In this document: positions 32,868 to 62,299 of the stretch, piece after piece | How the letters are laid out: the number at the start of each line of letters is the position of its first letter | How positions within the stretch are numbered: position 1 is the stretch's first letter | Source: an archaeon | GTDB lineage: Archaea > Aenigmatarchaeota > Aenigmatarchaeia > PWEA01 > JAGHBM01 | DNA length: 64,000 bases | Assembly: GCA_020355185.1 (NCBI GenBank) | Contig: CP070662.1 | Location: 350,357 to 414,356, forward strand | Reading direction: 5' to 3' | Translations under genes and position numbers: made by a program | The notes under the pieces: generated by a model | The model's database searches: none | What the model was told of the DNA's origin: nothing | The model's input: the letters and a program-made list of their open reading frames with translations, nothing else

Positions 32868-33848
32868 ATGAGAAGAACACCCCTGTTAGTATTCATCCTT
32901 CTCTTGTTGCCTTCCCTTTCCATGGCCCAGAGCAGCATGGAATTGCATGAAGGCGAAATGGATCTGAGGATATCACTGGAAACGGGATATATAAATCCTC
33001 TGGAATCGGAACCGGAGCTGTTTCTTTGCAGGCAGGAATGCAGGCATCTGGAAATAAGTTCTTTCAGCTACTCCGCGGGCAGCATGGATTTCTTTGTCCT
33101 GCCCGAGGTGTCCGGAGATTATAACCTGAAGATTTTTATGACGGTCAACGGGGAGGAAGTTGTTTATGAAAAGGAAATAAGCATTTCCAGAGAATACACA
33201 AAAAGCGAGACCCAAGAAAAGAACCAGGACGTGACGGCCAATATAATGAGAAATGCAGCCAGCCCCGTAGTTGGTCTGGGTTTACTGGCTTCCGTATTAC
33301 TCCTTTTTCTTTTCAAAACGGAGGGGTTTGGCCTCAAAAAAAGTCTTTTGCCCATGCCTAAGAATGGATTAAAGATTCTGACAGTCTTTCTCGTTTCTTT
33401 CCTGTTTCTGTCCTCGTTCACCCACGAGTTGTTCCACATATTCCTGGCCGGCATGTTCAGCTGTCCGGCTGTCCTGGAATCCTTTATACCGGTGTTCACC
33501 CCGACTTCAGTTTCACTTCAGGCCTGCCGGATAACATCGGTGCAGAGCATCCTGATTCTGGCCGCGGGTGTCGTGGGAAACTTGGTCTTGGGCGGAATTT
33601 TCTGCATTCTGGCCAGGCTGAAGAAAAAGAGTTTTTTGTCCGTAATTTCCCTGGCCCTCTTTTCATCGTCCTTTTTGTACCTTTTTTACACCACCGGCGA
33701 CATTCACAGTATAATGAGCATACTTAATATAGGCATAAGCCAGATTTATCTTGACGCGACCGGGATAGCTCTAATTCTGGTCACCTTTATTGTTTTTCTG
33801 AGAACTCAGAACAGGGGCACGTATCCCAGGTACCAGAGGAATATGTAA
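32868..33848 (+). CDS. Polytopic membrane protein with signal peptide and HExxH in a TM helix (putative intramembrane metalloprotease)
   Basis: Signal peptide LLVFILLLLPSLSMAQS, an extracytoplasmic domain of about 120 aa, then 5-6 TM helices with FTHELFHIFLAG and AAGVVGNLVLGG. Confidence 0.5.
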   Translation: MRRTPLLVFILLLLPSLSMAQSSMELHEGEMDLRISLETGYINPLESEPELFLCRQECRHLEISSFSYSAGSMDFFVLPEVSGDYNLKIFMTVNGEEVVYEKEISISREYTKSETQEKNQDVTANIMRNAASPVVGLGLLASVLLLFLFKTEGFGLKKSLLPMPKNGLKILTVFLVSFLFLSSFTHELFHIFLAGMFSCPAVLESFIPVFTPTSVSLQACRITSVQSILILAAGVVGNLVLGGIFCILARLKKKSFLSVISLALFSSSFLYLFYTTGDIHSIMSILNIGISQIYLDATGIALILVTFIVFLRTQNRGTYPRYQRNM

Positions 33849-36013
33849 ATCAGGAGGATTAGAGTGGCTAGGGATACCAGTGGATACATTATTCCCACGT
33901 ACTTGCCTCTCCTCCTGAGGATTATCAGTGAAAACAGCAGTATCAGGAATATGACGGTCAAGAGTGGTATGAGCGGTATGCCTCCCGGAAGAAGTGCCGA
34001 GGGGGCGGCGACATTTATCTTTATCCTGGCAAATGCATAGGCGTCCTCAATGGATTCTATTATAAGCATTGCATTGCAGCTCTTGGGGCCTGTCTTTGTT
34101 TTTACCTTTAAATTCAGGTTGCCTTCCTCTTCCAGATCCAGTACCATTTTCGGCGAACTGAAGTTGACAATGCAGTCTTCCGCGTTTTCCAGCTTGGCCT
34201 TAACCCCGGACAGGGGTTTCTTTCCTATATTCTTCACCAGTATGGGTATCTCCCCCTCGGAATCCGAATCAAGGATAATCTCTGCGGGACTCTCCACTAT
34301 CTTTATCTTGGCCAGAAACCTCCCGGGCAGGACCTCAAACCAGAAGTAAGTCATGTCCAGTATGTCCCCGTCACCGTCTATTGCCTGTACCGGAATTGCG
34401 TATACAGCAGGCTCCACCATGTACGTGGGTTGTATGAAAAGTGTCCTGTTAAGTTTTTGCCTCGGTGCTATGATGTCAACAACAGCAGACCCCGCTATCC
34501 AGTTCTCGCCCACTATAGGCACCAGGGTTATGTCACGGACCGTTCTTCCTCCAAGATTTTCCACTATAAATTCAACGGGGGTAAGCTGTTCCTGCATCCC
34601 TGTGACCTCTGGTTCAACCGGGTATATGTTTATTTCTATTTCCCCCGGCGCAGGGGTTGGTGTTGGTTTTGGACTTGGAGTGGGGCTAGGTTCCGGATAA
34701 GGTTCGGGAGAGGGCTGTTCCTCCTCCCCTCCCCTCCTCCTTACAAGTTCCAAGTCATCAACTATCTCCAGACTGCCGTTGCACTGTATGTAATCATCAC
34801 ATTCCAGCACCTCTGCCGTGTAGTTAACCTCGCAAATGGAAATAATATATCTGTCGGTGCAGCTGGTAAAGGTCTCGGAAAATGTTACATTAGTCCCGCT
34901 GGAGGTAAGTTGCGTAACGGTCAAATTACCCAGTTCATTGCTTATAATTCCTCCGTACCATTTTGTTGAATAGGCACATTCATTTGGGGTCAGGGTGGTG
35001 TCGTTGCTTAAGCAGGCATAACAGTATTCCGTGCAGTCATTCATCCGGAAGGTGTATGCATTGAACATGTCACCTGTGGCATTTACCATTCCGTGGTGGG
35101 TGGGATAGCTTGTATTCTGGCCCGAAACGTTAACAGAGGAGGTACCCGTCGTATTTGACTGATGTTCCATGGCATATGCATTGAAACAGGTTCTCCTGTA
35201 ATGATACCAGCATTCAGTTTCATTTATTCCGTCTTCGTCCTCGTCCTCAAGTTCGGTACAGCTGGCCGTTTGGTTGTATCCCGGCCAGGGATATGTAACA
35301 TCTTGGCTGTGAGATACCTTGCCTTTGAAATCAGTTATACCGTGCCAGTAATACGTACCGATTGCCGTGTCATTTTTTGTTGTCCACAGGCCGTAGTGCA
35401 AATCATCTTCCCCGAGTTTTAGTAAAATTGTGCTGTCAATAACAGGACCCCAGACCCGGTTCCCGTTCTGATAATCCAGATACATCTCACTGGTCTCGTT
35501 TATGTCGATATTACCCACATTCTCATTTACCTGTATGAAGAACACGGTCTGTTCCCTTACCACCTCTTCAGGGACGAAATAGAAACTGAAAATAGAGCCG
35601 CAACTTGGTGAAACCTCCAGGGAGATTGTCAACTGGTCTATTACAAGTATAGAGAAGTTGTATTCACCCGAGATTACGTAGCTTCCTGTGGAGTCGTTAA
35701 CGAATATACGATAGCGGTACAGACTTGGAAGGTCTGTTGAAAAGTCCAGTTCGTATTCTCCGCTCAGGCCGTATGCACCGCTGGTGTTGACCATCTCAAA
35801 AGTCTTGTTCATTGGGAATGTGAAATCGACCAGAACCTTGTCTATATCCCCGTCCGTATCAGTAACGTTGGCGGTTAGGGTCACATTATATCCCTGGAGC
35901 TGCGGGTCAGGATAGTCCGTAACGCCATTTATCACCGGGTCAGCGGCACCTGCAAGAGGCAGGAATACAGAAAAGGCTAAAAATGCCAGTACAAACGGGG
36001 GTGCTCTTTTCAT
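33806..36013 (-). CDS. Secreted, C-terminally anchored multi-domain surface protein (735 aa)
   Basis: Signal peptide ...FLPLAGAADP. N-terminal Ig-like module also repeated in the 4285-aa protein. Cys-rich central part, a Pro/Thr/Ser linker, two CARDB-like modules (IVENLGGRTV, LVKNIGKKPL) and C-terminal TM helices. Confidence 0.7.
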   Translation of the reverse strand: MKRAPPFVLAFLAFSVFLPLAGAADPVINGVTDYPDPQLQGYNVTLTANVTDTDGDIDKVLVDFTFPMNKTFEMVNTSGAYGLSGEYELDFSTDLPSLYRYRIFVNDSTGSYVISGEYNFSILVIDQLTISLEVSPSCGSIFSFYFVPEEVVREQTVFFIQVNENVGNIDINETSEMYLDYQNGNRVWGPVIDSTILLKLGEDDLHYGLWTTKNDTAIGTYYWHGITDFKGKVSHSQDVTYPWPGYNQTASCTELEDEDEDGINETECWYHYRRTCFNAYAMEHQSNTTGTSSVNVSGQNTSYPTHHGMVNATGDMFNAYTFRMNDCTEYCYACLSNDTTLTPNECAYSTKWYGGIISNELGNLTVTQLTSSGTNVTFSETFTSCTDRYIISICEVNYTAEVLECDDYIQCNGSLEIVDDLELVRRRGGEEEQPSPEPYPEPSPTPSPKPTPTPAPGEIEINIYPVEPEVTGMQEQLTPVEFIVENLGGRTVRDITLVPIVGENWIAGSAVVDIIAPRQKLNRTLFIQPTYMVEPAVYAIPVQAIDGDGDILDMTYFWFEVLPGRFLAKIKIVESPAEIILDSDSEGEIPILVKNIGKKPLSGVKAKLENAEDCIVNFSSPKMVLDLEEEGNLNLKVKTKTGPKSCNAMLIIESIEDAYAFARIKINVAAPSALLPGGIPLIPLLTVIFLILLFSLIILRRRGKYVGIMYPLVSLATLILLIYIFLWYLGYVPLF

Positions 36014-36014
36014 T

Positions 36015-36776
36015 CTATCTCCTTAACTTTCTGTATGCAAGATAAATCAAGACAAAAATCACAATTATGATTATCAGATACAACAGTGAATCGGATTCCT
36101 CCTCCTCGCCCAGGGAGAAAAACCCGGTGGGAAGGCGGCCTCTTTCTTGGCTTTCCTCCTCCTCTTTTTCTCTCACCCCGATGTTCCAAGTCCCGCCGGT
36201 GCCCGTACCCGATTTGTTGGACTCTATCTCCTGGTAATACTGCTCCAGAGTCTCCTCGTATTCCTCCTGGGTTTCGGCATTAACGTTTCCGGGTATGGTT
36301 ATGGAATAGGCATATTCTCGGGCCTGGGATATCTTTTCCCTGGTACCGCCGGGTCCCCCTTCTTCCGAGGTGGCCGTGGCTATTATCTTTACAACGTGAT
36401 AGTTTCTGGAAATCTCGCTTATGTTGTCCGGGATTTTAAGCGTTACGTAAACAGGAACAGCCTTTGCGTAGTTATCACCAAGAACAACCCATTCCTCCTC
36501 TCCCATCGGGTTAATTACGCTTTTCCAGTTCTCAAGAATGAAATATCTCGGGTTTATGCTTGTCCTTATCTCCCTGCTGCCTTCTTTCCCCATCTCCACG
36601 ACAAGAGGGGTATTTCCGTTGTTGAAGAAGGAGAGCTTGAATTCTCTTGCCTCCCCGGGTATCATGGTGACCCTCTGGTTGTGGCCCACGGAACCGAAGC
36701 TCATCTGGTCTCCACAGGCGGTACCGGCAAACAAGAGAATTAAAACAACCAAAATGCCCAAATACGATTTTTTCAT
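36015..36776 (-). CDS. Secreted beta-sandwich protein with acidic linker and C-terminal TM anchor (253 aa)
   Basis: Signal peptide, MIPGEAREFKLSFFNNGNTPLVV strand signature, Glu-rich spacer, and TM + YRKLRR tail. The stop lies 1 nt before the next start. Confidence 0.6.
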   Translation of the reverse strand: MKKSYLGILVVLILLFAGTACGDQMSFGSVGHNQRVTMIPGEAREFKLSFFNNGNTPLVVEMGKEGSREIRTSINPRYFILENWKSVINPMGEEEWVVLGDNYAKAVPVYVTLKIPDNISEISRNYHVVKIIATATSEEGGPGGTREKISQAREYAYSITIPGNVNAETQEEYEETLEQYYQEIESNKSGTGTGGTWNIGVREKEEEESQERGRLPTGFFSLGEEEESDSLLYLIIIIVIFVLIYLAYRKLRR

Positions 36777-36808: not shown

Positions 36809-39800
36809 TTACCAGGAGGCGTTTGCCATTATAGTTACAGTGCCCGCGTACGACCCCGTATACACTGGCGGGGTGTCCAGCCAGAAGTAAACCGAATGGG
36901 TTATTCCTGAATCGGCAGGCTCAATTATAGCTTCATAAGTATGGTTCATCCTGGCGGAAACACCGTAACCGGCGCATGCCCTGCACCAGCTTATGTTGGA
37001 AACTTCTATGGGCGTGGAAGTCCCCGCCATGTCCGTGCCTTTTATGTAAAGCCCCTGTGCATCATTCGAGTTCTTGTCCAGTCCGATCTGATAAGGATTG
37101 CCCGGCGCCGCTATCCCCTGAATATCCGGGTCTCTGTCTCCCCAGTCAATTTCGTCAGTGGATACATTCAGCACCAGGACCAAACCTATCCTTATCAGAG
37201 AGTTGGTTGTGTCGTTAGACGGGTTATAAAAGATAACATCTATGTTATAGTATTCATCAAGAGAGCCCGTGGAATTAACCTTCCATATAAAAGTGTAATT
37301 TTCGTCTTGGTCCAAGTTACAACTCTGGGGGTTTAGGTCAAATGTGTAAAATGGAACATCTCCCGGTGTTGTTGAAACATCTGTGTTGGGCTCAGTTCCA
37401 CTTGAATTATATCTTACTTTTCCATAAAGAGTCCCGCATCTCGATTCCTTGCATATTACAGTTGCATTTACGGTAAAGTTTTTGTATCGCGGGGTTATTG
37501 TGTTGTCCGGCGGTTCATTTAAAAACACAATCAATTTTCCTTCGGGCAGAGTTATGTTAACAGTTGTATTGTCTTCGTAACTCTCAGAAGCGTTATAATA
37601 CAAGGTGGAATTATCGGTAATGTTACACTTCGGATAGTAAACCCCATCTTCATACCAAGTTGTATCCCAGCTTCCGATTGCATGGCCCGTAGAGTTTGTA
37701 AAGTTGCTACCAAGACTTACACTATGAGTCGAGTTTTCCACATAAAAATTAACCAAATAGTCCTGTATACCCACACTGGTGTTTGAGTTTTCCACCAGAC
37801 AAGTTAAAGGAACAATTTCACCCTGAGTATAATTATCTCCGCTATCCGGCGAAATCCAGTCTACCTTGCTCCATCCCCGGACAAAGATTGTAATGCTATC
37901 CTCTCCGGAATCATAATATTGTTTTGTAACGCTTATCGTTACAAGTTCCGGTCCTACAGAGTGGCCTGACGGAACAATCCAGGTTGTATTTTCGCCAGAA
38001 GCTATATAATCTGTTGTATTTGTCCAGTTGGCCTGGTCCGGCGTGACAGCAATGTCATTTTCATCCTTGGTCGTTGAGTTCAGCCATGTCAAACTCTCAA
38101 CCTGATAAATTGATTCGTTCGCAGGATAACCCATACTTATATTTAATATACCAATGAGAGTAACAGACCCGGAGGCGTCATCGTCTGCGGCAGTGGTGTT
38201 ATAGTATGCGGACGGTTTGTTGTTTATGAGGCACCTCAAAGTTTTTGGTCCCACCGTCTCGGTTTGCGCATCCCAGTTCACTGTGGCGTAACCGGTCGAG
38301 TTCGTGTTATCCGAGTTTATGTAATCCCAGTCATCATCGTAAAAATCAACCTGATAATTTTCTATTCCGTACAAGCCGTCCTTATCAATAACCCTGCACG
38401 TGAGTGGAACCGTACCTCTGTAAGTGCTTCCCGAAGGTCCAGTCCATTCCACTTTACTTCTGCCCCAGACATCAAAAGTTTTGTATCCCAAGGAATCGTT
38501 CCAGTTCGGCGGAACAACTTGGTCGGATGCATTAATTTTCGTCACATGCACACCAACAATCCAAGAAGAGTTTGTATTAATGGTGTGATTAGTCCAGTTA
38601 TCGCCACCGATAGTTTCTGTCGCGTATCCTACTATTTGGGATGACGTGTCGTTAAACATGGTGTAAGAGTTTCCGATAGACTCGTTCCACTGTGCATAAA
38701 TCAGTAAGGCGTCGCCCTTCCAGACAACCGTATCATTTATTCCGTAAGTAATGGCAAAGGGTGGGGTTATGTCTTCCCCGGGCTCTTTGGTGGTTAAAGT
38801 CTCTGTTTTGTTGTTGTTCGAAGAGGCATTATACATGATGGCAGCATAATCGGTGATGTTGCAAACCAGCGTATCGGTTCCGTTACTGTAATCTATGTAT
38901 TTCCAGACAGCCCAGCCACTCGAGTTTGTTTGATTTGCACCCAAAATATTCGTGGAATTGTAGAAGCTGATGTTATAACCGGAAATAGCGCTTCCATTCA
39001 AATCAGTAACCCTACAACTAAACAAAGTCGAACTCCCTTCATAAATTATGTTCGGGTTCAGGTCACTGTCACTGACCTCGGACCAACCCCAGACTTCCGT
39101 TGTGTTTATCTGGGTCATGTTTTCGTTGCTCGATGAGTCGTTTGCATAAATTCTCCATCCGAGTATACCCGGGGTCATGCTCATTGGAATGGTTAATTCA
39201 AATTCGGCCCAATTTTCTATAACAATGGCATCTGCCAGCGAACTGTTTTGCCAAGTTCCTGTTTCGTTTGTTGACAGCCAGGCATAATCTAATGCCTCGT
39301 TATCATCCCAATAGGACTTATAGAGAATAGCGTCTCCCTTATGTACTACAGAAACGTTCTGGCTTACTTGCGAGTATTTGGGAGGTTCCGTCTCTATCGT
39401 TCTTAATGTTTTTATTTCGTAGTAGTCTGATGTGACGTTGTAATAAAGCGTGGAATTTTCAGTAATGTTACATGTAATGTTTTCATACCCCAAACTGTTA
39501 TCAACAAAGGTAAAACGTGCCCAGCCTGTCTGGTTTGTATTATTTGTGCCCAACTGATTTGTCGAGTTGTAGAAAACAACATTGTAACCACCAACGCCGC
39601 TTGTATTGTCAGAGACCACCCTACAATACACTGTTAAAGGATTTCCCTGGACAACAGTTGACGGGTCAAGATAGCTGCTGGGGATGCTTGACCAGCCCCA
39701 AACCTCAAAATTAAGGTGGTATAAGGTATTATTCCAGTTACCATTCAAGTCACTTGAATAAATTTTTAGGGAGTGAACCCCCAGCAACCAAGATACATTC

Positions 39801-55480: not shown

Positions 55481-55723
55481 CTACTTGAAGAATTTGCCGA
55501 TGGTTCTCTGTTCAACCCACCAAACCAGCCTTCTCTTGCTCTTGATCATTTCCTCCCTGTTCTTAACCATGTTTTTCAGTTGCAGGTCCTTCAGGTGGAC
55601 ATTGGCGGTGGACCAGGATATATTCAGTTTTTTTGCTATCTCATAAGTTGAAAGAGGTTCGGGACTTTCCCGGAGTAATTTGAGAATTTCTTCGTCCATC
55701 TCAGAAAGTCTGGGGGCGCCCAT
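55481..55723 (-). CDS. Small winged-helix DNA-binding protein (80 aa)
   Basis: DEEILKLLRESPEPLSTYEIAKKLNISWSTANVHLKDLQLKNMV is a typical HTH plus wing. It is the only non-secreted product in the island. Confidence 0.7.
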   Translation of the reverse strand: MGAPRLSEMDEEILKLLRESPEPLSTYEIAKKLNISWSTANVHLKDLQLKNMVKNREEMIKSKRRLVWWVEQRTIGKFFK

Positions 55724-55743
55724 ATTTATAATTTGTATATATT

Positions 55744-55755
55744 AATATATAAATG
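55744..55755 (-). promoter_or_regulatory. TATA box for the wHTH gene
   Basis: Minus-strand ACATTTATATATTA. The same 14-mer recurs at ~56842-56855. Confidence 0.45.
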
Positions 55756-55835
55756 TATTGACATATATTCCCGAGGCAGAAACCCCTCTAATTATAATGA
55801 TAAATAAAGAAAAAGAAGGAAAGGTAAACTTTCCC

Positions 55836-56768
55836 TTAAGCGTCGCTTGCTATCACAAAGAGTTCTCCGGAGCCAAGCGCACCTTCCTTTACACCATAAG
55901 ACAGGTGTATTGTTATGTTGGCTACTGTCGAGTTGCCCGGATACAGTGTCCCTGAATAGAAACTCTCCACAAACGTGCCCGAACCAGGCAGGTCCGTGTT
56001 CCAGTGCGACCATCTCACCCTGTCCAAAGTGGTGTTATCTACAGCTATGGTATAATTCAGTCCTCCTCCCTGATTTCCTATTATTATGTCCGCGTAGCAC
56101 CATCCGTCACCCGAGTCCGTTAGACTTCCGTATCTGAATGCTGAGGCCGGATTGGCTGTCAGATCGTTGACACCTGCCCCAGAAAAGTCTACTGTTCCTG
56201 TTGTCGTCTGTGTATGCGCAACGTCGCCTATATAAAAGTCGTTGCTGACGCAAGTGTCTCCTGTCTTGTCGAACATCCAGAACCATTCTTGTGAGGCGTT
56301 TCTGAATCTTCCGTAAGCCCACTTGGTTGAGTTGGGCGGTGAGTTTCCGTCCGGATCCTTAAGATAGATAAGGCTCCTTGTCTCGTTGAACTCAAGCCTG
56401 TCGACAGCATAATAATTTCCTGTTTCCCTTGCTATCCAAAGGAAGTTTGAAGATTCGTAGTTTGATGCTGTGCCCGTACCATAGGGGTTGCTTGTCGGCT
56501 GGGAGACATTGAACCAGAGTGTCGTTATGTTTACCGAACCTATGTTCTCTATCTGCGCCTGTTTTACAGCTCCTGTGGCTCCCGGGTCTATCGCCTCTCC
56601 CCCTTCCCAGGTGAAGGAAGCCGGAGTCAGGTCGATCATCATGCTCGAGCCTACCGTCACGTTAATCTCCGATGATTGTTCGTCTTCTGTTGCCGGTGCA
56701 AACTGTGTGAAGGCCAGAATCAAGGTGCAGATTGCTATAGAAACCAATAACTCTTTACCGTATTTCAT
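55836..56768 (-). CDS. Secreted ~310-aa protein, paralog family member 1
   Basis: Track ORF extends to 56777 (GTG). ATG at 56768 follows GGAGG and gives MKYGKELLVSIAICTLILAFTQFAPA. Shares QIENIGS, WFNV, YGRFRN.S.EWFW, AHTQT, WCYA and PGNSTVA blocks with 57870..58865 and 59000..59956. Confidence 0.7.
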   Translation of the reverse strand: MKYGKELLVSIAICTLILAFTQFAPATEDEQSSEINVTVGSSMMIDLTPASFTWEGGEAIDPGATGAVKQAQIENIGSVNITTLWFNVSQPTSNPYGTGTASNYESSNFLWIARETGNYYAVDRLEFNETRSLIYLKDPDGNSPPNSTKWAYGRFRNASQEWFWMFDKTGDTCVSNDFYIGDVAHTQTTTGTVDFSGAGVNDLTANPASAFRYGSLTDSGDGWCYADIIIGNQGGGLNYTIAVDNTTLDRVRWSHWNTDLPGSGTFVESFYSGTLYPGNSTVANITIHLSYGVKEGALGSGELFVIASDA

Positions 56769-56841
56769 TCTACACACCCTCCTTTTAGTTCTCCCATTCA
56801 GAAAATGGGGATGTTTGAGCTATTGATAATAAGTATGTGGT

Positions 56842-56853
56842 AATATATAAATG
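56842..56853 (-). promoter_or_regulatory. TATA box upstream of paralog 1
   Basis: Minus-strand ACATTTATATATTA about 75-85 nt upstream of the ATG. Confidence 0.4.
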
Positions 56854-56947
56854 TAACGATATATCGAGATAACTTTAAATATAAGCTCTCCCAAAAAATT
56901 TAATTGGTGGGGAACAAAGTGTCATCCTTTCCTCTAATTCTTAATTA

Positions 56948-56962
56948 GAGGGTGTTCCAACC
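56948..56962 (-). promoter_or_regulatory. Conserved GGAACACCCTC element (copy 1 of 3), next to a 9-bp perfect hairpin
   Basis: Plus-strand GAGGGTGTTCCAACC. The adjacent CCTCTAATT-AAG-AATTAGAGG inverted repeat lies just downstream of the 56981..57826 stop. Confidence 0.3.
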
Positions 56963-56980
56963 CCCCACCTTTATTTTTTA

Positions 56981-57826
56981 TCAAGTCAGAATTATTGTGT
57001 AGTTAACAAGCCAGCTGTCATAGTGGTATGAACGCATCCCCTTGTAATAGATTGCACTGACGTTTAACCTGAAATTGTATTTCTCCTGGGGGTACTCCTC
57101 ATAAGGCTTGGGTTTCGGGCTGTAAAACCTGAAACCAACCGATTTTGCCATCACGTATCCCTCTATGCCTTCAATTTGTATGTATTTTTCATCCGGAGGA
57201 TGCTTTTCCGGCTCCGCCATTTTCAATTCCGAGGGTTCGACCTTTACATTCATATCTACAGGATCCCTGTCCATGGGATTGTACCTTTGTACCATTGGTT
57301 CCATCTCCACCCTGAAAGAAGGCCTTTCCAGAATATCCACCTTGACGTAGTAAGTTGTATTTCCGTTTATGTTGTAGAAGTACAGAGCCTCGCCGAACTC
57401 GCTCCCTTTCCTGACCTTTAACTCCTCTCTGTTCTGTTTTATCCCCAGCGGAATAACTATGTCCTGGTTTAATATTTCCTGTACCATGCAGACGGTTTCC
57501 CTTGTCTCCGGGTCAACCCAGAGGGTCATGCTCTTGTTTTCCTTCACATCGGTGTACTGGAATTTCCAGTAGCCCTGTTTCTCGAAGCCGTCTCCGCAGT
57601 CCTGCCTTATTTCTTCAATTTCTTTTTCTATCACGCCTTCTGATATGAAATAACCCTGTACCTTTGCCCTCGGGTAAGCCTGCAGGAATTTCTGGGCCAT
57701 AGGATTCTGGTCTATGACCTCCAGAACGTTTTCCATACCCTCCCTTTCCTCTGTCTGGAAACCCGATAAAAGGAGAAATAATATTATTACAATCAAAACC
57801 AGATTTGAGATCAAAAGCTTGTTCAT
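56981..57826 (-). CDS. N-terminally anchored protein with PepSY-like and beta-sandwich regions (281 aa)
   Basis: Signal anchor LLISNLVLIVIILFLLLSGF. ...YWKFQYTDVKENKSMTLWVDPETRETVCMV resembles PepSY. Confidence 0.55.
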   Translation of the reverse strand: MNKLLISNLVLIVIILFLLLSGFQTEEREGMENVLEVIDQNPMAQKFLQAYPRAKVQGYFISEGVIEKEIEEIRQDCGDGFEKQGYWKFQYTDVKENKSMTLWVDPETRETVCMVQEILNQDIVIPLGIKQNREELKVRKGSEFGEALYFYNINGNTTYYVKVDILERPSFRVEMEPMVQRYNPMDRDPVDMNVKVEPSELKMAEPEKHPPDEKYIQIEGIEGYVMAKSVGFRFYSPKPKPYEEYPQEKYNFRLNVSAIYYKGMRSYHYDSWLVNYTIILT

Positions 57827-57869
57827 AACTATAATTAATCAAAATAAAAATAAAAAAGAGTAAGGGATT

Positions 57870-58865
57870 TTATGCTCCTTCTTCGCTTCTGACGAATACG
57901 GTTAGTATACCCTGTGAAACGACACCTTTTGCCACTCCGTACGGCAGGTAAATCTTAAGGTCGGCCACCGTTGAGTTTCCCGGGAAGGTGTTCATTTCAG
58001 AGAATATCTCGTTGTGGAATGTCTCGTCCCCGTATCCGAAGTCAGAGCCACCCGGAAACTGTATGTTCCAGTGAGACCACCTTACCTGGGTCCCGTTCAT
58101 GTTCACTGCTATGGTGTAGTTCCTTCCGCCTATGTTTATGTTCGCGTAACACCAGTCAGTGCTTCCGGCCTGTGTAAGGGTTCCTGACCTGCAGTCTCCC
58201 GCGGGTGCGTCTGTCAGCGAGTTCGGGCATGTGCTTGAAAAGTCTATCGTACCTGACTGTGCCTGGGTGTGCGGGTCGTCTCCAACATAGAAGTTCGCAC
58301 CATTGCAGTCGTCCGGCGTGGCTTCTCTTGAATCCGTGAACCAGAAGTACTCGTATGAAGTGTTCCTGAACCTTCCGTAGTGATACTTGGTCTCGTTTGG
58401 TGGTATGTTTCCGTCAGGGTCTGTAAGGTAAATCAGCCTCCTTGACTCGTTGAACTCAAGCCTGTCCACCGCGAAATAAACTGGATCAGAACTGTCGCCA
58501 GTGTAGTTTTCCCTTGATATCCAAAGGAAGTTTGCTGCATCATATTCTGTCGGGTCACCTGTTGCGAAAGGCCTGTCCGCCGGTTGAGTGACATTGAACC
58601 AGACCTTTGAGAAGTTGGTTGATCCTATGTTCTCTATCTGAAGCTGCTGTCTCGCTGTATCCTTCCCGGGGTCAACTCCAACCCATGAGAACTCTGCGGG
58701 GTTCATGTCAACCAGTGTCAATGTGGAAACATTAACGTCTATTGTCATGGTATCTGTCACGTTTATTGCTGAAACCTTTGGTGCGAATCCAACGAAGAAG
58801 GATCCTGCCACTAGTATGCTTACGGCTAAAATCCCTAAACTAATTCCTAATACTGAATATTTCAT
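57870..58865 (-). CDS. Secreted ~330-aa protein, paralog family member 2
   Basis: MKYSVLGISLGILAVSILVAGSFFVGFAPKVSA signal peptide, with the same conserved blocks as member 1. Confidence 0.7.
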   Translation of the reverse strand: MKYSVLGISLGILAVSILVAGSFFVGFAPKVSAINVTDTMTIDVNVSTLTLVDMNPAEFSWVGVDPGKDTARQQLQIENIGSTNFSKVWFNVTQPADRPFATGDPTEYDAANFLWISRENYTGDSSDPVYFAVDRLEFNESRRLIYLTDPDGNIPPNETKYHYGRFRNTSYEYFWFTDSREATPDDCNGANFYVGDDPHTQAQSGTIDFSSTCPNSLTDAPAGDCRSGTLTQAGSTDWCYANINIGGRNYTIAVNMNGTQVRWSHWNIQFPGGSDFGYGDETFHNEIFSEMNTFPGNSTVADLKIYLPYGVAKGVVSQGILTVFVRSEEGA

Positions 58866-58878
58866 TATTTCTTCACCT

Positions 58879-58894
58879 GAGGGTGTTCCTAACC
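58879..58894 (-). promoter_or_regulatory. Conserved GGAACACCCTC element (copy 2), in the 5' UTR of paralog 2
   Basis: Plus-strand GAGGGTGTTCCTAACC, 14-29 nt upstream of the ATG. In the mRNA, CACC...GGUG could pair across the Shine-Dalgarno AGGUGA. Confidence 0.3.
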
Positions 58895-58999
58895 TTTTTT
58901 AGGATGCGGGTATATTTAAAGATTTCGCTTATAAAATCAACTTTTTCTTGTTTAAACTCATTTAGTTAAGAGAAAAAAAGGAGGGTTTATGCTGGTTTA

Positions 59000-59956
59000 T
59001 TATGCTGTCGCGCTTACTATAACAGTTATCGTTCCTGTTATTTCCGGATTGCTTGAGTCGTAAACAACACCGTACGGAACCAGAGGCATTACTCTTGCGT
59101 AACCCGATCCACCCGGCATTATCGCGTCTTGCGTCGTGGAGTTAATGAAGAACTCGGCGTTGGAACAAGAGTCTGCTCCGGGCGCATCCATGTTGTATTT
59201 GTAGAACATTGCCTTGCTTGCATCATGGTACATGGCCACGCACACCGGCATAACTCCACCGAAGTTTATGTTTCCGTAACCCCAGTCTCCTGCGTAGGGT
59301 GCGGACGTCACCATTGTAAGGTCAACCTGGTTTGCAGCACTCTGAAGGTCTGCTCCTGTCTCTGTCTGGGTGTGTGCCACAGTTGAATAATAGAACCTGC
59401 CTTGAGTGTAATTACTTGCACCGTTCAAGTCAACCTGCCAGAACCATTCCCTGGAGCCGTTCCTGAACCTGCCGTAAGGCGTGTCAGGCGGGGTGGTGCC
59501 GTCAAAGCCTCTCAGATAAATGATTTCATCGCTTTCATTATATTCCACCCTGTTGGGAAAGTAGTATGTCTGTCCGGGAGTGTTGTTTGATATGACTATA
59601 AAGTTGCCTGCGTCGTACTTTGACACGTTACCTGTCCCGAAAGGCCTCTCGGAAGGATAACTGTTGTTGAACCAGACATAAGTCAGGTTAATGGAACCCA
59701 TGTTCTCTATCTGTATTTTTTTGTAGGTACCATTTGAACCAGGGTCTATCGGGGTAGTCCAGTTCAGGTCATCAGGTGCTATGTTGACTATGCATTTCTC
59801 GCTTATGTTCACCAGCACATTCAGTGTGTCGGATGCGTTTATATCAGCTGCTGTCACATCGCTAATGTTAATCCCCAGCGTAAGGGTAAATATCAAAAGG
59901 GTCAGGATACCCAAAACTAGACCGGGAATTATGTTATTATTCATATTCATTTTCAC
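59000..59956 (-). CDS. Secreted ~315-aa protein, paralog family member 3 (most divergent)
   Basis: GTG at 59956, with ATG alternatives at 59950 and 59944. Signal peptide ...LTLGINISDVTA. Motifs: QIENMGSINLTYVWFNN, PFGTG, YGRFRNGSREWFW, AHTQTETG. Confidence 0.7.
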   Translation of the reverse strand: MKMNMNNNIIPGLVLGILTLLIFTLTLGINISDVTAADINASDTLNVLVNISEKCIVNIAPDDLNWTTPIDPGSNGTYKKIQIENMGSINLTYVWFNNSYPSERPFGTGNVSKYDAGNFIVISNNTPGQTYYFPNRVEYNESDEIIYLRGFDGTTPPDTPYGRFRNGSREWFWQVDLNGASNYTQGRFYYSTVAHTQTETGADLQSAANQVDLTMVTSAPYAGDWGYGNINFGGVMPVCVAMYHDASKAMFYKYNMDAPGADSCSNAEFFINSTTQDAIMPGGSGYARVMPLVPYGVVYDSSNPEITGTITVIVSATA

Positions 59957-59960
59957 ACCT

Positions 59961-59976
59961 AGGGGGATGTTCCTAA
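59961..59976 (-). promoter_or_regulatory. Conserved GGAACA(U)CCC element (copy 3), in the 5' UTR of paralog 3
   Basis: Plus-strand AGGGGGATGTTCCTAA immediately upstream of the start region. Confidence 0.3.
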
Positions 59977-60020
59977 AGAATTGTTGGTATATTGTTATAT
60001 TTAAAGTTTTCTATATGGGG

Positions 60021-60821
60021 TTATTTCCTTTTTCTTGAGAACGCATAAATATTGGCCATAGAAGACAGAATAAGCAGAATCAGCACGACAATAAAAATGC
60101 TGTAGCCGTTTTCGTCCCAGAAATATTTCTCCTCTCTGAGCTTGAAACTTATCTTCTCTGACGAGTATCTCCCGTCAAGGCTTACTGCCTGCAGGTCCAC
60201 TTTTTCCTCCATCCAGACGGACGGCTCGTAATCCAGGACCAGCTTCGCCCCTTCCCCCGCTTCCAGATTTTCCAGCCTTTTGCTGCTGAATATCCAACCG
60301 GCCGGGTAGTTGGTTGGAATTACTATCAGGTCTTCCACGTCCGTATCCGAATCAAGCATGACTTCAATCTTTTTTCCCGGCAGGTTCCTGGCTTCTATAC
60401 CAATGGTCTCTTCGGAACGTGGAACCGATTCCACAGAGAAGTTGAAGGCTTCGCTTTTTATGGCATCATGACAGTGATGTATTACAAGCACGGTTGAATA
60501 GTTTCCCTTTTCTTCCGGCAACCAGTATGCTTCGAAATGTCTGCTCACTCCGACGGGCATCTCTCTCTCATCCGACCAGACTGTTTCATATTTTCCGCCC
60601 CCTTTCCCAATTCGGTATTCCATCCTGCTGCGGCAACTTACGGATTCACTGTTGTACCACTGGATAACAAATCTCTGCACCGAGTCAACATTTTTTTCCA
60701 GTTCAAAGTATTCGATTTGGCCCCCAATTTTATCCCTGACTCTTACGTTTATTTCAACTGCCAAGACAGATGGTGAGACCAGAAGTATGCAAAGCATTAT
60801 GCAAAAAATCCTTCTCATCAT
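60021..60821 (-). CDS. Secreted beta-sandwich protein with C-terminal TM anchor (266 aa)
   Basis: Signal peptide CIMLCILLVSPSVLA and a C-terminal TM + SRKRK tail. 4-nt overlap with the upstream gene. Confidence 0.6.
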   Translation of the reverse strand: MMRRIFCIMLCILLVSPSVLAVEINVRVRDKIGGQIEYFELEKNVDSVQRFVIQWYNSESVSCRSRMEYRIGKGGGKYETVWSDEREMPVGVSRHFEAYWLPEEKGNYSTVLVIHHCHDAIKSEAFNFSVESVPRSEETIGIEARNLPGKKIEVMLDSDTDVEDLIVIPTNYPAGWIFSSKRLENLEAGEGAKLVLDYEPSVWMEEKVDLQAVSLDGRYSSEKISFKLREEKYFWDENGYSIFIVVLILLILSSMANIYAFSRKRK

Positions 60822-61330
60822 ATTATCCCGATGATTTTTTCAGCAAGAAAATTTTTGGGTATGGTATTTCTTATCATAAGGGTTCCAGTAAAATTCCCGG
60901 TTTCTGTTCCGTTGAAAGTGATTTTTATAGACCTCTTCTCACTTTTCAGATAAATTTTTTCCGGCATTTTCATGTAGGGAGTTATGTCACCTTCGGAGCG
61001 AAGCTCGACCCTAGCCATCCCATCTGACCCCATGTCAATCGTTTTTGTTATGGAGGACTTTCTTGGTATGACACCAAAATTGAGCTCATATTTTTGTCCT
61101 GCCACCCCGACAGGTATGGTATCATTCTCAACTTCAATTACCTCACTCTTCATGGGATAGTACCACAGCTCTTCCCTGAACATGAAGTTTTCCGAGACTT
61201 CCATGGTGCGTTTATCAACTTTTTTTATTTCAAAGTTATGGTACAACAAAAGAAAAGACACAGAGACTATCATTATTAGAGCAAGTACCAATGTTGCAAC
61301 TATTACTATTGCAATGTTTATTTTCTTCAT
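60818..61330 (-). CDS. N-terminally anchored beta-sandwich protein (170 aa)
   Basis: Signal anchor IAIVIVATLVLALIMIVSVSFLLL. The start abuts the upstream stop. Confidence 0.6.
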   Translation of the reverse strand: MKKINIAIVIVATLVLALIMIVSVSFLLLYHNFEIKKVDKRTMEVSENFMFREELWYYPMKSEVIEVENDTIPVGVAGQKYELNFGVIPRKSSITKTIDMGSDGMARVELRSEGDITPYMKMPEKIYLKSEKRSIKITFNGTETGNFTGTLMIRNTIPKNFLAEKIIGII

Positions 61331-62299
61331 CTATCTTCTTCTCCAGTAAATGTATAACAGGATTAGTCCTATTATAAGAATTACTATCCACCAGGGGAAC
61401 TCTTCTGCTCTGACTTCCATCCTTGCAGTCACACCGGCCCTGGGTATAGTTACCATGGTCTCTTTTGTGACTTTTCCGGTAAGGTAGTCCACGGTTGCCT
61501 CAATTTTTATGTTCTTCTGTTCGTTGGTATCCAGGTCTCTCCAGAAAACCTTAAGGATGCCGGTGTTCTTTGGCGGGACCATGACGTATCCTCCGTCATA
61601 AGTACCCACGTAATATCCGGTCTCATTATAAACTTTAAGGGATGAAACTCTGGCGCTCATGGTAACCGTGCCCGAGTTCCTGAAGAGCACATCAACCGCG
61701 GCCCTGTCGCCGTTTCTTGAACCCGCGACCCCTTCTATCACGCCCTCCCTTTTGGCAACGCCGGGTATCTTGAATATGAAAAAAGGTCTGGTTATTCCTA
61801 TTGTCGAGACCCCGGTTCCGGATCCGCCGGAGGAAAGTTTGGGCTTCAAAACAACCTCATATGTGTGGTACCCTGGTTCAGCATCCGGAGGAACGTCCAT
61901 TATTATGGTCACCTTTTCGTTCGCGTTAACTATACTTCCGTCAGGAAACCTTACAGAGAAGCTTTCCCTGTTTGAGACCACTACCTTTTCCCTGAGGAAG
62001 CTTAGCCATTCCGACATATCCTCCTCCGATGCCTCGGCGGGTATAAATGTATAGCGGCCTGTCACGTTGTGGTCGAACATGGACCTCCTGCTCTCTATGA
62101 AATCCAGGCTCGTCACGAGGTCGTTCCTAGAGTTGGTCACAAGGTAAAAATCAACTGCGTACTCCCTGCCCGGTTCAAGCTCTCCTATTTGCATTACCCC
62201 GGGTGCCGCTCCAAGCGAAACCCCTCTCGCCTGCGCCAGGGTTAAGAGAAAAACCAACAAAAGGGACAGCAGAAACGGTGTTTTTTTAGCCAATCTCAA
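61331..62299 (-). CDS. Secreted two-domain beta-sandwich protein with C-terminal TM anchor (322 aa)
   Basis: TTG start 5 nt after GGAGGGG. Signal peptide LLSLLLVFLLTLAQA. Two Ig-like halves (ELEPGREYAVDFYLV..., AVDVLFRNSGTVTM...). TM + WRRR tail. Confidence 0.65.
   Translation of the reverse strand: MRLAKKTPFLLSLLLVFLLTLAQARGVSLGAAPGVMQIGELEPGREYAVDFYLVTNSRNDLVTSLDFIESRRSMFDHNVTGRYTFIPAEASEEDMSEWLSFLREKVVVSNRESFSVRFPDGSIVNANEKVTIIMDVPPDAEPGYHTYEVVLKPKLSSGGSGTGVSTIGITRPFFIFKIPGVAKREGVIEGVAGSRNGDRAAVDVLFRNSGTVTMSARVSSLKVYNETGYYVGTYDGGYVMVPPKNTGILKVFWRDLDTNEQKNIKIEATVDYLTGKVTKETMVTIPRAGVTARMEVRAEEFPWWIVILIIGLILLYIYWRRR

Follow-up and report, generated by a model that had tools for sequence, protein, structure and literature searches.

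A widely conserved gene cluster of DPANN archaea and Altiarchaeota encoding a candidate membrane-anchored surface adhesion complex

Results

A cluster of exported beta-sandwich proteins

Within a 64,000-nucleotide stretch of archaeal DNA (hereafter, the window), a sequence-only reading had described 13 consecutive minus-strand ORFs between positions 33806 and 62299. The coordinates and lengths of all 13 hold (g1 to g13), and the cluster makes up ~4% of the DNA of this tiny genome.

61331..62299, minus strand: g1, anchored two-domain PapD/WxLIP-like protein (signal peptide, two beta-sandwiches, conserved FPWW, TM helix, WRRR tail)
60818..61330, minus strand: g2, N-terminally anchored single beta-sandwich protein (TM at residues 6-24)
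60021..60821, minus strand: g3, signal peptide, beta-sandwiches, C-terminal TM helix and SRKRK tail
59000..59956, minus strand: g4, secreted sequon-rich subunit paralogue of an orphan family (34-36% identity with g5 and g7; sequon density 4.1 per 100 aa)
57870..58865, minus strand: g5, secreted sequon-rich subunit paralogue (P0024, JSV92_02620; 47% identical to g7)
56981..57826, minus strand: g6, N-terminally anchored protein, a lineage-specific insertion
55836..56777, minus strand: g7, secreted sequon-rich subunit, the paralogue chosen for modelling
55481..55723, minus strand: g8, 80-aa winged-helix regulator, conserved beside subunit genes
50108..55423, minus strand: g9, 1771-aa secreted giant adhesin with a CBM96 module (4.6 sequons per 100 aa), without anchor
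50111..50530, minus strand: conserved ~130-aa C-terminal module of g9, ending ...YxGTxTIxANA[ST]W-COOH, a proposed docking domain
49626..50114, minus strand: g10, small N-terminally anchored protein between both giants, lineage-specific
36809..49666, minus strand: g11, anchorless secreted giant adhesin, at most 4285 aa long, carrying CBM96 and Ig-like repeats (sequon density 5.2 per 100 aa)
36812-37231, minus strand: g11 copy of the ~130-aa C-terminal module
36015..36776, minus strand: g12, with one domain, a paralogue of g1 domain 1, then an acidic linker, TM helix and YRKLRR tail
33806..36013, minus strand: g13, 735-aa anchored protein with an N-terminal Ig-like module, Pro/Thr-rich linker, NEW3/CARDB-like sandwiches and two C-terminal TM helices
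62334-62343 (g1), 56843-56852 (g7), 55745-55754 (g8) and 55449-55458 (g9), minus strand: identical ATTTATATAT TATA-like boxes upstream of each gene (element span 55449..62343)

The gene junctions are as tight as had been reported, with a 0-nt gap at 61331/61330, a 1-nt gap at 36015/36013, and overlaps of 4 nt at 60821/60818, 7 nt at 50114/50108 and 41 nt at 49666/49626. A single operon is nonetheless contradicted by the TATA-like boxes and T-runs, which delimit at least six transcription units. A variant box, CTTTAAATATA, is found in the intergenic sequences at g4 and g5, and g4 has its own TATA-like box and T-run terminator. The 10-mer pattern occurs 7 times in the window against 1.15 occurrences expected, a count reached in 0 of 100 shuffles. 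The GC content of the region (0.41-0.48) is not distinct from that of the rest of the window (0.38-0.50), no tRNA genes were found within the window, and these two checks gave no sign of a mobile island at the cluster.

A hydropathy scan bore out the earlier description of these proteins as exported or anchored: an N-terminal hydrophobic segment is present in every product bar the 80-aa winged-helix protein, and C-terminal TM helices are present in g1, g3, g12 and g13. The sole hydrophobic segment of both giants is N-terminal, and the subunits, which are likewise secreted, lack an anchor as well. At their N-termini the subunits look like Sec substrates, with VSA, VTA or APA after a short hydrophobic stretch, and there was no PilB/PilC-type match among the scanned cluster proteins, so that a type IV pilus, whose hallmarks had already been noted as absent, was rejected.

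The density of N-glycosylation sequons in subunits and giants is 13-20 times that of the window's cytosolic proteins: there are 3.2-4.1 per 100 aa in the subunits and 4.6-5.2 in the giants, as compared with 0.6-0.8 in the anchors g1, g3 and g12 and 0.24 in the cytosolic controls. This gradient would fit an exposed distal layer above a buried, membrane-proximal one.

The anchored proteins share related domains

An AlphaFold 2 model of g1 (pLDDT 88, pTM 0.72) was compared with known structures using Foldseek. The best global match in the PDB was the Enterococcus faecium WxLIP 9i1y (E 1.6e-8, TM 0.42/0.48), and 9i25_C, annotated as ‘WxLIP bound to long WxL’, matched with a TMt of 0.51 (E ~2e-8). 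The chaperones of chaperone-usher systems, CsuC (6fqa), YadV, CupB2 and DraB, also matched (E 1e-6 to 1e-7). By E-value, however, the fold is matched equally well by many generic PapD/MSP-like two-domain proteins, which counts against a specific relationship to the WxL system. At the sequence level there is no link to WxL or WxLIP either, with WxLIP_PGBD matching 1 of 25 g1 orthologues (E 0.02) and a profile search of PDB sequences returning no WxL/WxLIP link; none of the g1 homologues (n=54) carries a precomputed Pfam domain.

Several of the other anchored proteins are related to g1. The N-terminal domain of g3 is homologous to g1 domain 2 (hhalign A8 vs A4: probability 94%, E 1.2e-7), and g12 is homologous to g1 domain 1 (A8 vs g12: probability 80%, E 1.4e-5, 161 columns). 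Since g12 lies just downstream of the giant g11, in a giant-then-g12 pairing that recurs in relatives, we propose it as the giant anchor. g2, which has faint matches to DUF1573, Cep192_D4 and choice-of-anchor D, is always partnered by g1 and g3, and was syntenic in 24 subunit-seeded loci and 15/19 g1-seeded loci. The N-terminal Ig-like module of g13 is common to g11, with 37% identity to the g11 repeats. CARDB/NEW3-type beta-sandwiches, as recognised by the earlier reading, were seen in orthologues of g3 (CARDB in 6/23, best E 0.0021) and g13 (NPCBM_assoc in 8 of 19 sequences, comprising 15 g13 and 4 g12 family members; best E 5.5e-8). The PepSY-like module of the earlier reading was sub-threshold in g6 (E = 0.062). 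Only L001/L004 and L005, the closest relatives, were found to carry g6 and g10.

An orphan subunit family and two giant adhesins

The three ~320-aa subunits g4, g5 and g7 are paralogues, as had been suggested, at 34-47% mutual identity, and represent an orphan family. The AlphaFold 2 model of g7 is all-beta (pLDDT 92.4, pTM 0.83), and had no match at E <= 1e-3 in Foldseek searches of the PDB and BFVD; a sequence search of the PDB with g7 also found none, and there was no consistent Pfam family among 54 family members scanned. A TasA-like fibre was rejected (8aur matched the g7 model at only E 0.17, TM 0.21 in Foldseek), as was the identification of the gene set with hami. The mature subunit, of ~280 aa and 16 strands, begins with a conserved alternating strand, TIxVxV...TxVDxNP. 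In the g7 monomer model, DSSP leaves residues 24-47 without a strand, and residues 21-40 have a mean pLDDT of ~70.

CBM96, already seen by eye, is significant in both giants (g9, 1.4e-23; g11, 2.3e-25), and g11 has weak matches to Big_1, Big_3_5 and Big_13. CarboxypepD_reg, by contrast with the initial assignment, had no match at E <= 0.1 in the window's own proteins, and was found only in relatives. g9 and g11 share ~620-700 N-terminal residues at 54-58% identity and ~250 C-terminal residues at 47%; because the g9 alignment starts at g11 residue 27, the TTG start of g11 is probably placed too far upstream. The ~130-aa C-terminal module recurs in conserved form in 9 giants, drawn from several lineages (alignment A6). 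It bears a weak likeness to the subunit N-terminus (hhalign E 0.0035, probability 9%), which makes homology between them only suggestive.

One alternative is a fibre built by donor-strand complementation, the archaeal equivalent of chaperone-usher pili, threads or tafi, with the subunits polymerising via the conserved strand at their N-terminus. In this scheme the giants would serve as tip adhesins, whose pilin-like C-terminal module takes up the first donor strand; g1, g2 and g3 would act as membrane-tethered chaperones of the PapD-like type or as a platform for assembly, with g12 or g13 at the base. The chaperone matches of g1, the N-terminal strand motif of the subunits and the absence of an assigned strand there in the monomer model, and a separate promoter and terminator for each subunit gene are all consistent with such a fibre, as is the way the giants end, in the conserved module and its final pilin-like YxGTxTI strand, an arrangement shared with two-domain chaperone-usher adhesins. 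In addition, small regulators and Ig-like membrane proteins of a similar kind accompany the known archaeal strand-donation filaments (PMC11821415, PMC9715654). Nevertheless, we regard this fibre as unlikely: the subunit fold is unlike that of any solved pilin, TasA, thread or cannula subunit and, in size and strand number, far exceeds typical strand-exchange pilins; the cluster has neither an usher nor a dedicated signal peptidase; and the top TM-score match of g1 is WxLIP, an anchor and not a soluble chaperone.

Conserved neighbours and distribution across lineages

Conserved genes lie directly outside the 13 ORFs on both flanks, and the boundaries 33806-62299 are therefore too narrow.

62386..63150, plus strand: archaeal MinD/ParA-type ATPase, divergent from g1
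63152..64000, plus strand: 5' part of a further secreted protein, starting one base past the MinD-type gene and running off the window
32868..33848, plus strand: x326, putative zinc metalloprotease of the intramembrane type, a polytopic membrane protein with invariant HExxH and GD motifs
31887..32837, plus strand: DUF58 (VWA-like) protein (DUF58 1.2e-40), no TM segment found, present in 29/71 loci
29919-30902 and 30903-31886, plus strand: two tandem MoxR-type AAA+ ATPases (AAA_3 6e-59 and 1.1e-55)

The MinD-type ATPase matches TIGR01969 minD_arch at 2.7e-50 (171 bits, below the cut-off of 201.75), and the secreted protein that follows it shares 60% identity over 284 aa with an 841-aa protein encoded beside the L001 MinD-type gene. 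In x326, residues H186, E187, H190 and D278 show no variation across 10 orthologues, which have weak matches to DUF3267, Peptidase_M50 and M50B (best E 1.9e-4); in relatives, its gene is convergent with g13. The earlier statement that no enzyme or secretion ATPase is recognisable thus stands within 33806-62299, but fails beyond it, where the conserved MinD-type, MoxR, DUF58 and putative metalloprotease genes are found. The winged-helix call on g8 was confirmed (HTH_24, 2.7e-8); this protein resembles Sta1/Lrs14-type regulators (1e-6) and occurs in 36/71 loci.

The 13-gene set is no accident, as its parts are syntenic in relatives: conserved gene order was found in ~150 loci of DPANN archaea and Altiarchaeota. 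Subunit-seeded loci, at 68 places in species-representative genomes, show the parts to be shared by Aenigmatarchaeota, Nanohaloarchaeota, Woesearchaeota, Micrarchaeota and Altiarchaeota. A g1-seeded metagenome scan, independent of this set, yielded 19 loci with at least 4 kb on both sides, in which we found a MinD-type gene (18/19, adjoining the g1-g3 triad), a subunit gene (17/19), g3 (16/19), g2 (15/19) and a giant (13/19).

The MoxR/DUF58 genes have a different distribution. The tandem MoxR pair is kept beside subunit genes in Altiarchaeota and DPANN, and MoxR/DUF58 lie directly downstream of subunit genes in 12/22 subunit-seeded loci, convergent with g13, g12 and the giant, across several phyla and arrangements. 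They are, however, missing from 18/19 g1-seeded loci and occur together with the triad in just 5/22 subunit-seeded loci. MoxR-DUF58-VWA operons are widespread and have many partners (PMC3893208, PMC5700661), so this part might be no more than a common envelope system of the Bat-like (MoxR/VWA) type which, in genomes this compact, happens to neighbour adhesin genes unrelated to it, with no single apparatus. The repeated association in the 12 loci speaks against this, and the argument touches the accessory module only, leaving a tightly linked core of giant and g12, subunit, g1-g2-g3 and MinD-type gene; we consider such a chance association very unlikely.

It also seems quite unlikely that the subunit paralogues are S-layer or outer-sheath proteins held by g1, g3 and g12 as membrane stalks, as SlaB holds SlaA, with the giants displayed separately as adhesins. 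The subunits are secreted without an anchor and have very many sequons, the 2-4 paralogues each have a TATA box and terminator, suggesting high expression, and neighbouring genes encode anchored partners, all as expected of an S-layer; in most DPANN lineages, moreover, S-layer genes are to our knowledge yet to be identified. But the family is small, at 343 representative clusters at 50% identity among 1.84e9 proteins, and many genomes have several separate loci with differing partner sets. Furthermore, the tight link to giants and a MinD-type positioning ATPase is no known S-layer feature, and no S-layer Pfam family was matched in scans of the cluster proteins and subunit family. Named cultivated DPANN species were in none of the recovered loci, which, in a scan by two peptide patterns, is weak evidence against an S-layer.

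Discussion

The reading that we prefer, and put forward tentatively, is that these genes encode a Sec-dependent, membrane-anchored surface adhesion complex of DPANN-type archaea and Altiarchaeota, built on a WxL/Csc-like plan from unrelated or unrecognisably diverged proteins. The exported or anchored structural products, sequon density and multi-phylum synteny fit, as indirect evidence, the earlier proposal of a dedicated cell-surface or adhesion apparatus. Its further claim that the set maps to no characterised archaeal surface structure can be qualified: bacteria have a close analogue in the WxL/WxLIP surface complexes of Gram-positive species, to which the structural match of g1 points.

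WxLIP, like g1, has a signal peptide, two Ig-like domains and a TM helix, at similar length; in WxL clusters, one WxLIP is accompanied by small secreted proteins of a single domain and by large proteins that carry this domain C-terminally; and AlphaFold2 predicts a WxLIP beta-hairpin inserted into the WxL domain (PMC10599100). Against a WxL relationship, no WxL domain was matched in scans of the cluster proteins or subunit family, and the g7 model had no match to the WxL chain of 9i25 at E <= 1e-3. In addition, the WxL domain binds peptidoglycan, whereas archaea of the present kind have none.

In such an adhesion complex, g1, g2, g3, g12 and g13 sit in the membrane, with their Ig/PapD-like domains presumably facing outwards. 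Subunits and giants would be exported via Sec, losing their signal peptides, and become heavily N-glycosylated. Being anchorless, they would be held by beta-strand docking onto the first domain of WxLIP-like anchors, a step suggested by fold match, paralogy and gene adjacency: g1 would hold the subunits, and g12 the giants, by way of their conserved ~130-aa C-terminal module. The giants' CBM96, Ig-like and, in relatives, LamG-type modules would then be presented outward to bind glycans or other cells. Judging by conserved neighbourhood, the MinD-type ATPase may set the membrane site of the complex, and the MoxR-DUF58-HExxH-protease-g13 module may aid its assembly or processing in many lineages; the 80-aa winged-helix protein may control the separate promoters.

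A function confined to host adhesion, as first envisaged, is too narrow, because the cluster is also present in Altiarchaeales MAGs; we know of no host-dependence in that lineage. The gene set, undescribed so far yet widely conserved, provides a concrete candidate for how such archaea may attach to surfaces or host cells.

The gene block and its transcription units

The 28.5-kb block comprises 13 consecutive minus-strand open reading frames, here called g1 to g13 in order of transcription, which run from 62299 down to 33806. In this respect the sequence-only reading was exactly right, down to the length of each frame and the junctions between them. Its claim that every product except an 80-aa winged-helix (wHTH) protein, g8, is exported or anchored was borne out by a hydropathy scan, which found an N-terminal hydrophobic segment in all the others and, as had also been said, a C-terminal transmembrane (TM) helix followed by basic residues in g1, g3, g12 and the 735-aa g13. 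The three ~320-aa secreted subunits that it took for paralogues (g4, g5 and g7) are 34-47% identical. As for domains, Pfam supports the winged helix in g8 and the proposed CBM96-like modules in both giant proteins, g9 and g11 (E values of about 1e-23 and 2e-25), and gives nothing significant in the other products of the window cluster. The PepSY-like module that had been suggested drew a Pfam score below threshold, and the CarboxypepD_reg-like module is absent from the window's own proteins.

The extent of the island has to be amended, since the limits first set for it, 33806-62299, are too narrow and conserved neighbours lie on both sides.

Conserved neighbours of g1-g13 (window positions)
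29919-31886, converging on g13: two tandem MoxR AAA+ ATPases
31887-32837, converging on g13: DUF58 protein
32868-33848, converging on g13: 326-aa polytopic membrane protein with an HExxH motif
62386-63150, plus strand, diverging from g1: archaeal MinD-type ATPase (TIGR01969, 2.7e-50)
63152-64000, plus strand: 5' part of a further secreted (signal-peptide) protein; only one base separates it from the MinD-type gene, and it leaves the window

Because the last of these genes leaves the window, the cluster extends beyond it. Its product shows 60% identity to the 841-aa protein that a relative encodes at this position (locus L001, 1124-3649); there the gene is convergent with a BatA/VWA gene. The 28.5-kb block makes up 3.4% of the 832,879-bp contig. 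The multi-part system as a whole takes, within the window, at least 34 kb of the 833 kb. The rest of the window consists of archaeal housekeeping genes, including those for Cdc48, a topoisomerase, SerRS and an Rtc cyclase. A mobile island was rejected, as neither a compositional shift nor a tRNA gene was found in the window, and Rfam identified no RNA family there. A free-standing reading frame on the minus strand (22484-23119), which resembles a homing endonuclease (LAGLIDADG_3, 3.7e-7), lies in an AT-richer stretch with a GC content of 0.38.

Judging by its putative promoters and terminators, the g1-g13 block is not a single operon. An identical ATTTATATAT box is found upstream of g1, g7, g8 and g9, the pattern having seven matches in the window against 1.15 expected; a variant box, CTTTAAATATA, is common to g4 and g5; and T-runs follow g4, g5 and g7. 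These separate boxes and T-runs imply at least six transcription units. Further TATA-like 10-mer copies are present at 17194-17209, as two overlapping 10-mers on opposite strands just upstream of a 434-aa reading frame (17226-18530) with no Pfam match, and at 32987-32996, as one antisense copy inside the HExxH gene.

A conserved core and an accessory module

The g7 family has 85 matches among 90%-identity clusters, and every source that is named belongs to DPANN or Altiarchaeota or is an unclassified archaeal MAG; g7 itself is identical to NCBI protein JSV92_02610 over 99% of its length. When 1.84 billion representatives were searched exhaustively with a profile, 343 clusters were found at E <= 1e-3. 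Among the 150 of these that were listed, nearly all are single-domain proteins of about 290-380 aa.

Comparison of gene order in relatives, which the sequence-only reading had suggested as a check, revealed that the same parts recur across archaeal phyla. We collected 68 loci from species-representative genomes of Aenigmatarchaeota, Nanohaloarchaeota, Woesearchaeota, Micrarchaeota, 'Nanobdellati' and Altiarchaeota, and labelled their reading frames using the window's proteins. The recurring order begins with a MinD-type gene and g1-g2-g3. Next come between two and four subunit paralogues accompanied by a small wHTH gene, then one or two MoxR genes, DUF58 and the membrane protein; convergent with these are g13, g12 and a giant. 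Among the 22 subunit-seeded loci flanked on each side by 4 kb or more, the g1-g2-g3 triad was found in 11, MoxR with DUF58 in 12, either in 18 and both in 5. An independent g1-seeded scan of metagenome contigs yielded 80 loci, 19 of which had enough flanking sequence. Here the MinD-type gene was present in 18/19, a subunit gene in 17/19, g3 in 16/19, g2 in 15/19 and a giant in 13/19 (often with a g12-like gene directly after it), and MoxR/DUF58 in only 1/19. These counts define a core of giant plus g12, subunit, and g1-g2-g3 with the MinD-type gene, together with an accessory module, found in a subset, of MoxR, DUF58, membrane protein and g13. Both g6 and g10 are confined to the window's closest relatives.

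Gene order varies by lineage. An Altiarchaeales genome, ex4484_96, has four subunit paralogues, two wHTH genes, two MoxR genes, DUF58 and a VWA gene, a series that converges on proteins of 1100, 298 and 3946 aa. In Nanohaloarchaeota (two loci), a giant and a 325-aa g12-like protein precede the subunits, and MoxR lies on the opposite strand. Several MAGs have two or three separate subunit loci.

Subunits with an orphan fold

The AlphaFold model of g7, built on a 54-sequence alignment, is all-beta (pLDDT 92.4, pTM 0.83). Foldseek comparison of this model with the PDB (best E 0.029) and with the viral structures of BFVD returned nothing at E <= 1e-3; sequence and profile searches of the PDB with the subunits were empty, and the 54 family members have no Pfam family in common. 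The subunits thus form an orphan family with, as far as the PDB and BFVD go, an orphan fold. Their N-termini end in Sec cleavage contexts of the VSA/VTA/APA type, and the mature N-terminus has a conserved alternating strand; in the monomer model of g7, DSSP assigns no strand to residues 24-47, and the mean pLDDT over residues 21-40 is ~70. One protein, P0167 (672 aa), carries a subunit domain at 376-671 after an unexplained N-terminal region of ~375 aa, and is possibly a natural fusion, from which the binding partner of the subunit might be read.

A faint Peptidase_M73 match of g5 (E 0.23) had raised the TasA/camelysin/AbpA group as a lead. Neither family nor fold search supported it: Peptidase_M73 matched 2 of the 54 family members, at E >= 0.16, and Foldseek placed the g7 model against the TasA fibre 8aur at E 0.17 (TMq 0.21). 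A match of one family member to Arch_flagellin (E 0.006) was judged to be noise. As the sequence-only reading had noted, hallmarks of type IV pili and archaella are absent, the cluster products including no class III signal peptides and no PilB/ArlI or PilC/ArlJ, and this identity was rejected.

Anchors resembling WxL-interacting proteins

The model of g1 (pLDDT 88, 41 homologues) shows a signal helix, two beta-sandwiches and a TM helix. Foldseek returned 461 PDB matches at E <= 1e-3, all of them PapD/MSP-like two-domain proteins. The best global fits were to two structures of the Enterococcus faecium WxL-interacting protein (WxLIP), 9i1y (E 1.6e-8, TM 0.42/0.48) and 9i25, described as 'bound to long WxL' (TMt 0.51); the chaperones CsuC, YadV, CupB2 and DraB of chaperone-usher systems were also among the matches. 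Profile comparisons identified g12 as a paralogue of the first domain of g1 (E 1.4e-5), and the first domain of g3 as a paralogue of the second domain of g1 (E 1.2e-7). Orthologues of g2 and g3 gave weak CARDB, DUF1573 and Cep192-type matches, NEW3 (NPCBM_assoc) was found in 8 of 19 scanned g13/g12 sequences, and g13 has an Ig-like module in common with the repeats of g11.

At the outer edge of its C-terminal TM helix (61331-61400, minus strand) g1 has an FPWW motif, followed by WRRR, and P302, W303 and W304 are conserved in at least 90% of the 41 homologues. The NCBIfam Loki-CTERM sorting domain matched this C-terminus at 19.0 bits (cut-off 19.9). This C-terminus may be a sorting signal, for which no matching enzyme was identified.

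Giant proteins

Both giants, g9 with 1771 aa and g11 with 4285 aa, have in common their N-terminal ~620-700 aa (54-58% identity) and C-terminal ~250 aa (47%), and by hydropathy lack a membrane anchor. At the C-terminus of each is a module of ~130 aa that recurs in conserved form across nine giants of different lineages and finishes ...YxGTxTIxANA[ST]W. A homologue search with this module found only eight short contig-end fragments. Its resemblance to the subunits is only suggestive: hhalign of the two profiles gave E 0.0035 at a probability of 9% over the N-terminal 62 columns only, and comparisons of single sequences reached E values of 0.05-0.12. The TTG start assigned to g11 lies within g10, an overlap of 41 nt (49626-49666); as g9 aligns only from residue 27 of g11 onwards, translation probably starts further downstream, at Met15. 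SPEARE-type nanohaloarchaeal giants, which carry a VirB4-like ATPase domain and have a different context, were rejected as an identity.

Neighbouring enzymes

The best family for the MinD-type ATPase is TIGR01969 (171 bits, E 2.7e-50), but the score lies below the cut-off of 201.75. The MoxR pair matches AAA_3 (6e-59 and 1.1e-55), and the next protein matches DUF58 (1.2e-40). In the 326-aa polytopic protein, the HExxH motif and a downstream GD are invariant in ten orthologues, among which weak matches were found to DUF3267 (3/10, best 0.027), M50 (2/10, 0.07) and M50B (1/10, 1.9e-4); the window protein itself matches none of these three models. On these motifs it is probably an intramembrane-type zinc protease.

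MoxR (AAA_3) followed by DUF58 and then membrane proteins is also the arrangement of the Bat-type loci of Bacteroides and Borrelia (PMC5700661), and a BatA/VWA gene stands at the equivalent place in the relatives L001 and L002 (the Altiarchaeales locus). The MoxR-DUF58 part could possibly be an independent Bat-like system. Unlike those loci, however, the window has a tandem MoxR pair, has the HExxH polytopic protein where BatA/BatB would be, and has its module converging on genes for a giant adhesin and for an anchored protein rich in Ig-like domains. The protein after DUF58 has no VWA match, no match to BatC, BatD or BatE was found in the window proteins scanned, and g13 and its orthologues do not match BatD. 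This alternative bears on the accessory module only.

A strand-docking proposal

The closest known plan to that of the archaeal cluster is the Gram-positive WxL/Csc cluster, which occurs in Lactobacillales and Bacillales and encodes small WxL, large WxL and WxLIP proteins (PMC10599100, PMC1534035). The small secreted proteins consist of a single WxL domain, the large ones have outward binding domains with the same domain placed C-terminally, and WxLIP, made up of a signal peptide, DUF916, DUF3324 and a TM helix, is suggested to retain the WxL domain through a beta-hairpin that enters this domain (PMC10599100). The two clusters share three classes of product. One comprises several small single-domain proteins that are secreted; another, very large secreted proteins that carry outward-facing binding domains and a conserved module at the C-terminus; the third is a protein of ~320-360 aa in which a signal peptide and two Ig-like domains are followed by a C-terminal TM helix and basic residues. 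WxLIP is matched by g1 in architecture, size and modelled fold (9i1y and 9i25 being the best global fits), and retention by beta-strand insertion is the proposed likeness in mechanism.

The differences are also clear. The archaeal hosts lack peptidoglycan, the WxL ligand; their cluster has the extra conserved g2, g3, MinD-type ATPase, MoxR, DUF58 and HExxH protein; and its subunits are ~280 aa and, as predicted from sequons, heavily glycosylated, compared with 160-190 aa for a WxL domain, which has two Trp-x-Leu motifs. WxLIP_PGBD (DUF916) matched one of 25 g1 orthologues (E 0.02) and not the window's g1, the g1 profile found no WxLIP among PDB sequences, and the WxL Pfam domain was found in none of the subunits, giants or 54 family members. 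The g7 model matched no solved WxL chain at E <= 1e-3, though 9i25 was in the library. Since sequence membership fails, the modelled subunit fold does not match the WxL chain and peptidoglycan is lacking, we suggest that the cluster works like a WxL complex and do not class it as one.

We base a docking proposal on the same three protein classes, the WxLIP-like g1 and the position of g12. The latter carries one copy of the WxLIP-like first domain; its gene lies just downstream of the one for g11, which has no anchor, and in relatives too a giant is followed by g12. In this scheme g1 and g12 would dock subunits and giants on the membrane by strand augmentation, g12 being the putative anchor of the giant. 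The MinD-type ATPase would serve in positioning, MoxR/DUF58 and the HExxH protein in assembly or processing, and g8 in regulation. Sequon density per 100 aa is 3.2-4.1 in the subunits, 4.6-5.2 in the giants and 2.9 in g13, and 0.6-0.8 in g1, g3 and g12 and 0.24 in cytosolic controls, a gradient that would fit a distal layer lying exposed above a proximal layer that is buried. The topology, the fold match, the paralogies, the gene adjacency and the sequon gradient are direct results of the analysis; the docking and its specificity, the glycosylation and the roles named here are inferred from them.

A less likely alternative is a real donor-strand fibre, with g1-g3 acting as tethered chaperones and the giants as tip adhesins; in its favour are the PapD-like matches of g1, the conserved N-terminal strand of the subunits and the position of the giants' module at the C-terminus. 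Chaperone-usher pili with two-domain adhesins of the FimH/PapG type resemble the cluster in the PapD-like fold of g1, in the C-terminal conserved module of the adhesins and in Sec-dependent export that needs no dedicated secretion ATPase. In contrast to those systems, the archaeal candidate 'chaperone' is membrane-anchored and the subunits match no pilin fold. No cluster product matches an usher or beta-barrel family, and most carrier lineages have a single membrane.

That the subunits are S-layer proteins would also fit their export, glycosylation potential and individual promoters; less in keeping with this reading are the small size of the family and its coupling to giants and to an ATPase of the MinD type. 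Archaeal strand-donation filaments, namely Sulfolobus threads (PMC9715654), AbpA/TasA-like bundling pili (PMC9245690), haloarchaeal tafi (PMC11821415) and cannulae (PMC12518558), likewise have Sec- or Tat-exported beta-rich glycoprotein subunits, clusters with small transcription regulators and Ig-like membrane proteins, and no type IV pilus machinery. The window cluster resembles none of them in sequence or fold, lacks a TafD/SipW-type signal peptidase and has much larger subunits, and the parts of those reports that we consulted mention neither giants nor a MinD-type ATPase. Hami, another surface structure of Altiarchaeota, are built from a Sec-exported, glycosylated, beta-sandwich-rich protein. 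The hamus subunit of Candidatus Altiarchaeum hamiconexum is, however, just one protein, of 97 kDa, whose N-terminus is S-layer-like and whose contig neighbours are unrelated genes (PMC4460559). This published description, with no ~320-aa family, anchors and giants beside the hamus gene, sets the two apart, and an identity with hami was rejected.

Taken together, the cluster is best called a putative strand-docking surface adhesion complex with an orphan subunit fold and unusual conserved partners, widespread in ultrasmall archaea; the finding is real, conserved and mechanistically suggestive.

Implications for ultrasmall archaea

In the searchable literature we found no description of this cluster, including for DPANN in combination with MoxR/DUF58, donor strands or giant surface proteins. 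A parallel discovery, made by structure work in the analogous ultrasmall bacteria, is that of new donor-strand pili in CPR bacteria (bioRxiv 10.64898/2026.03.03.709456).

DPANN and Altiarchaeota are mostly uncultured, their surface proteins are almost all annotated as 'hypothetical', and the molecular basis of their attachment to hosts, each other and surfaces is largely unknown. Here a block of hypothetical genes becomes a defined multi-part system that recurs across phyla: subunits with an orphan fold, putative docking anchors, giant adhesins and a MinD-type ATPase, with a MoxR/protease module as an optional addition. The subunit fold is confidently predicted and has no match in the PDB or BFVD, the WxL/WxLIP analogue points to exact pairwise interactions worth testing, and the cluster provides candidate markers for metaproteomics and for the assignment of cryo-ET density. 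A bolder reading, which we put forward as doubtful, is that the cluster encodes an unrecognised class of surface organelle in DPANN and Altiarchaeota, in which new-fold glycoprotein subunits would polymerise on WxLIP-like anchors and carry the giants, positioned by the MinD-type ATPase and matured by MoxR/DUF58 and the HExxH protease. If true, ultrasmall archaea would have in this organelle the attachment device long sought for them, and it would be either an independent archaeal invention or a very deep relative of the PapD/WxLIP docking principle.
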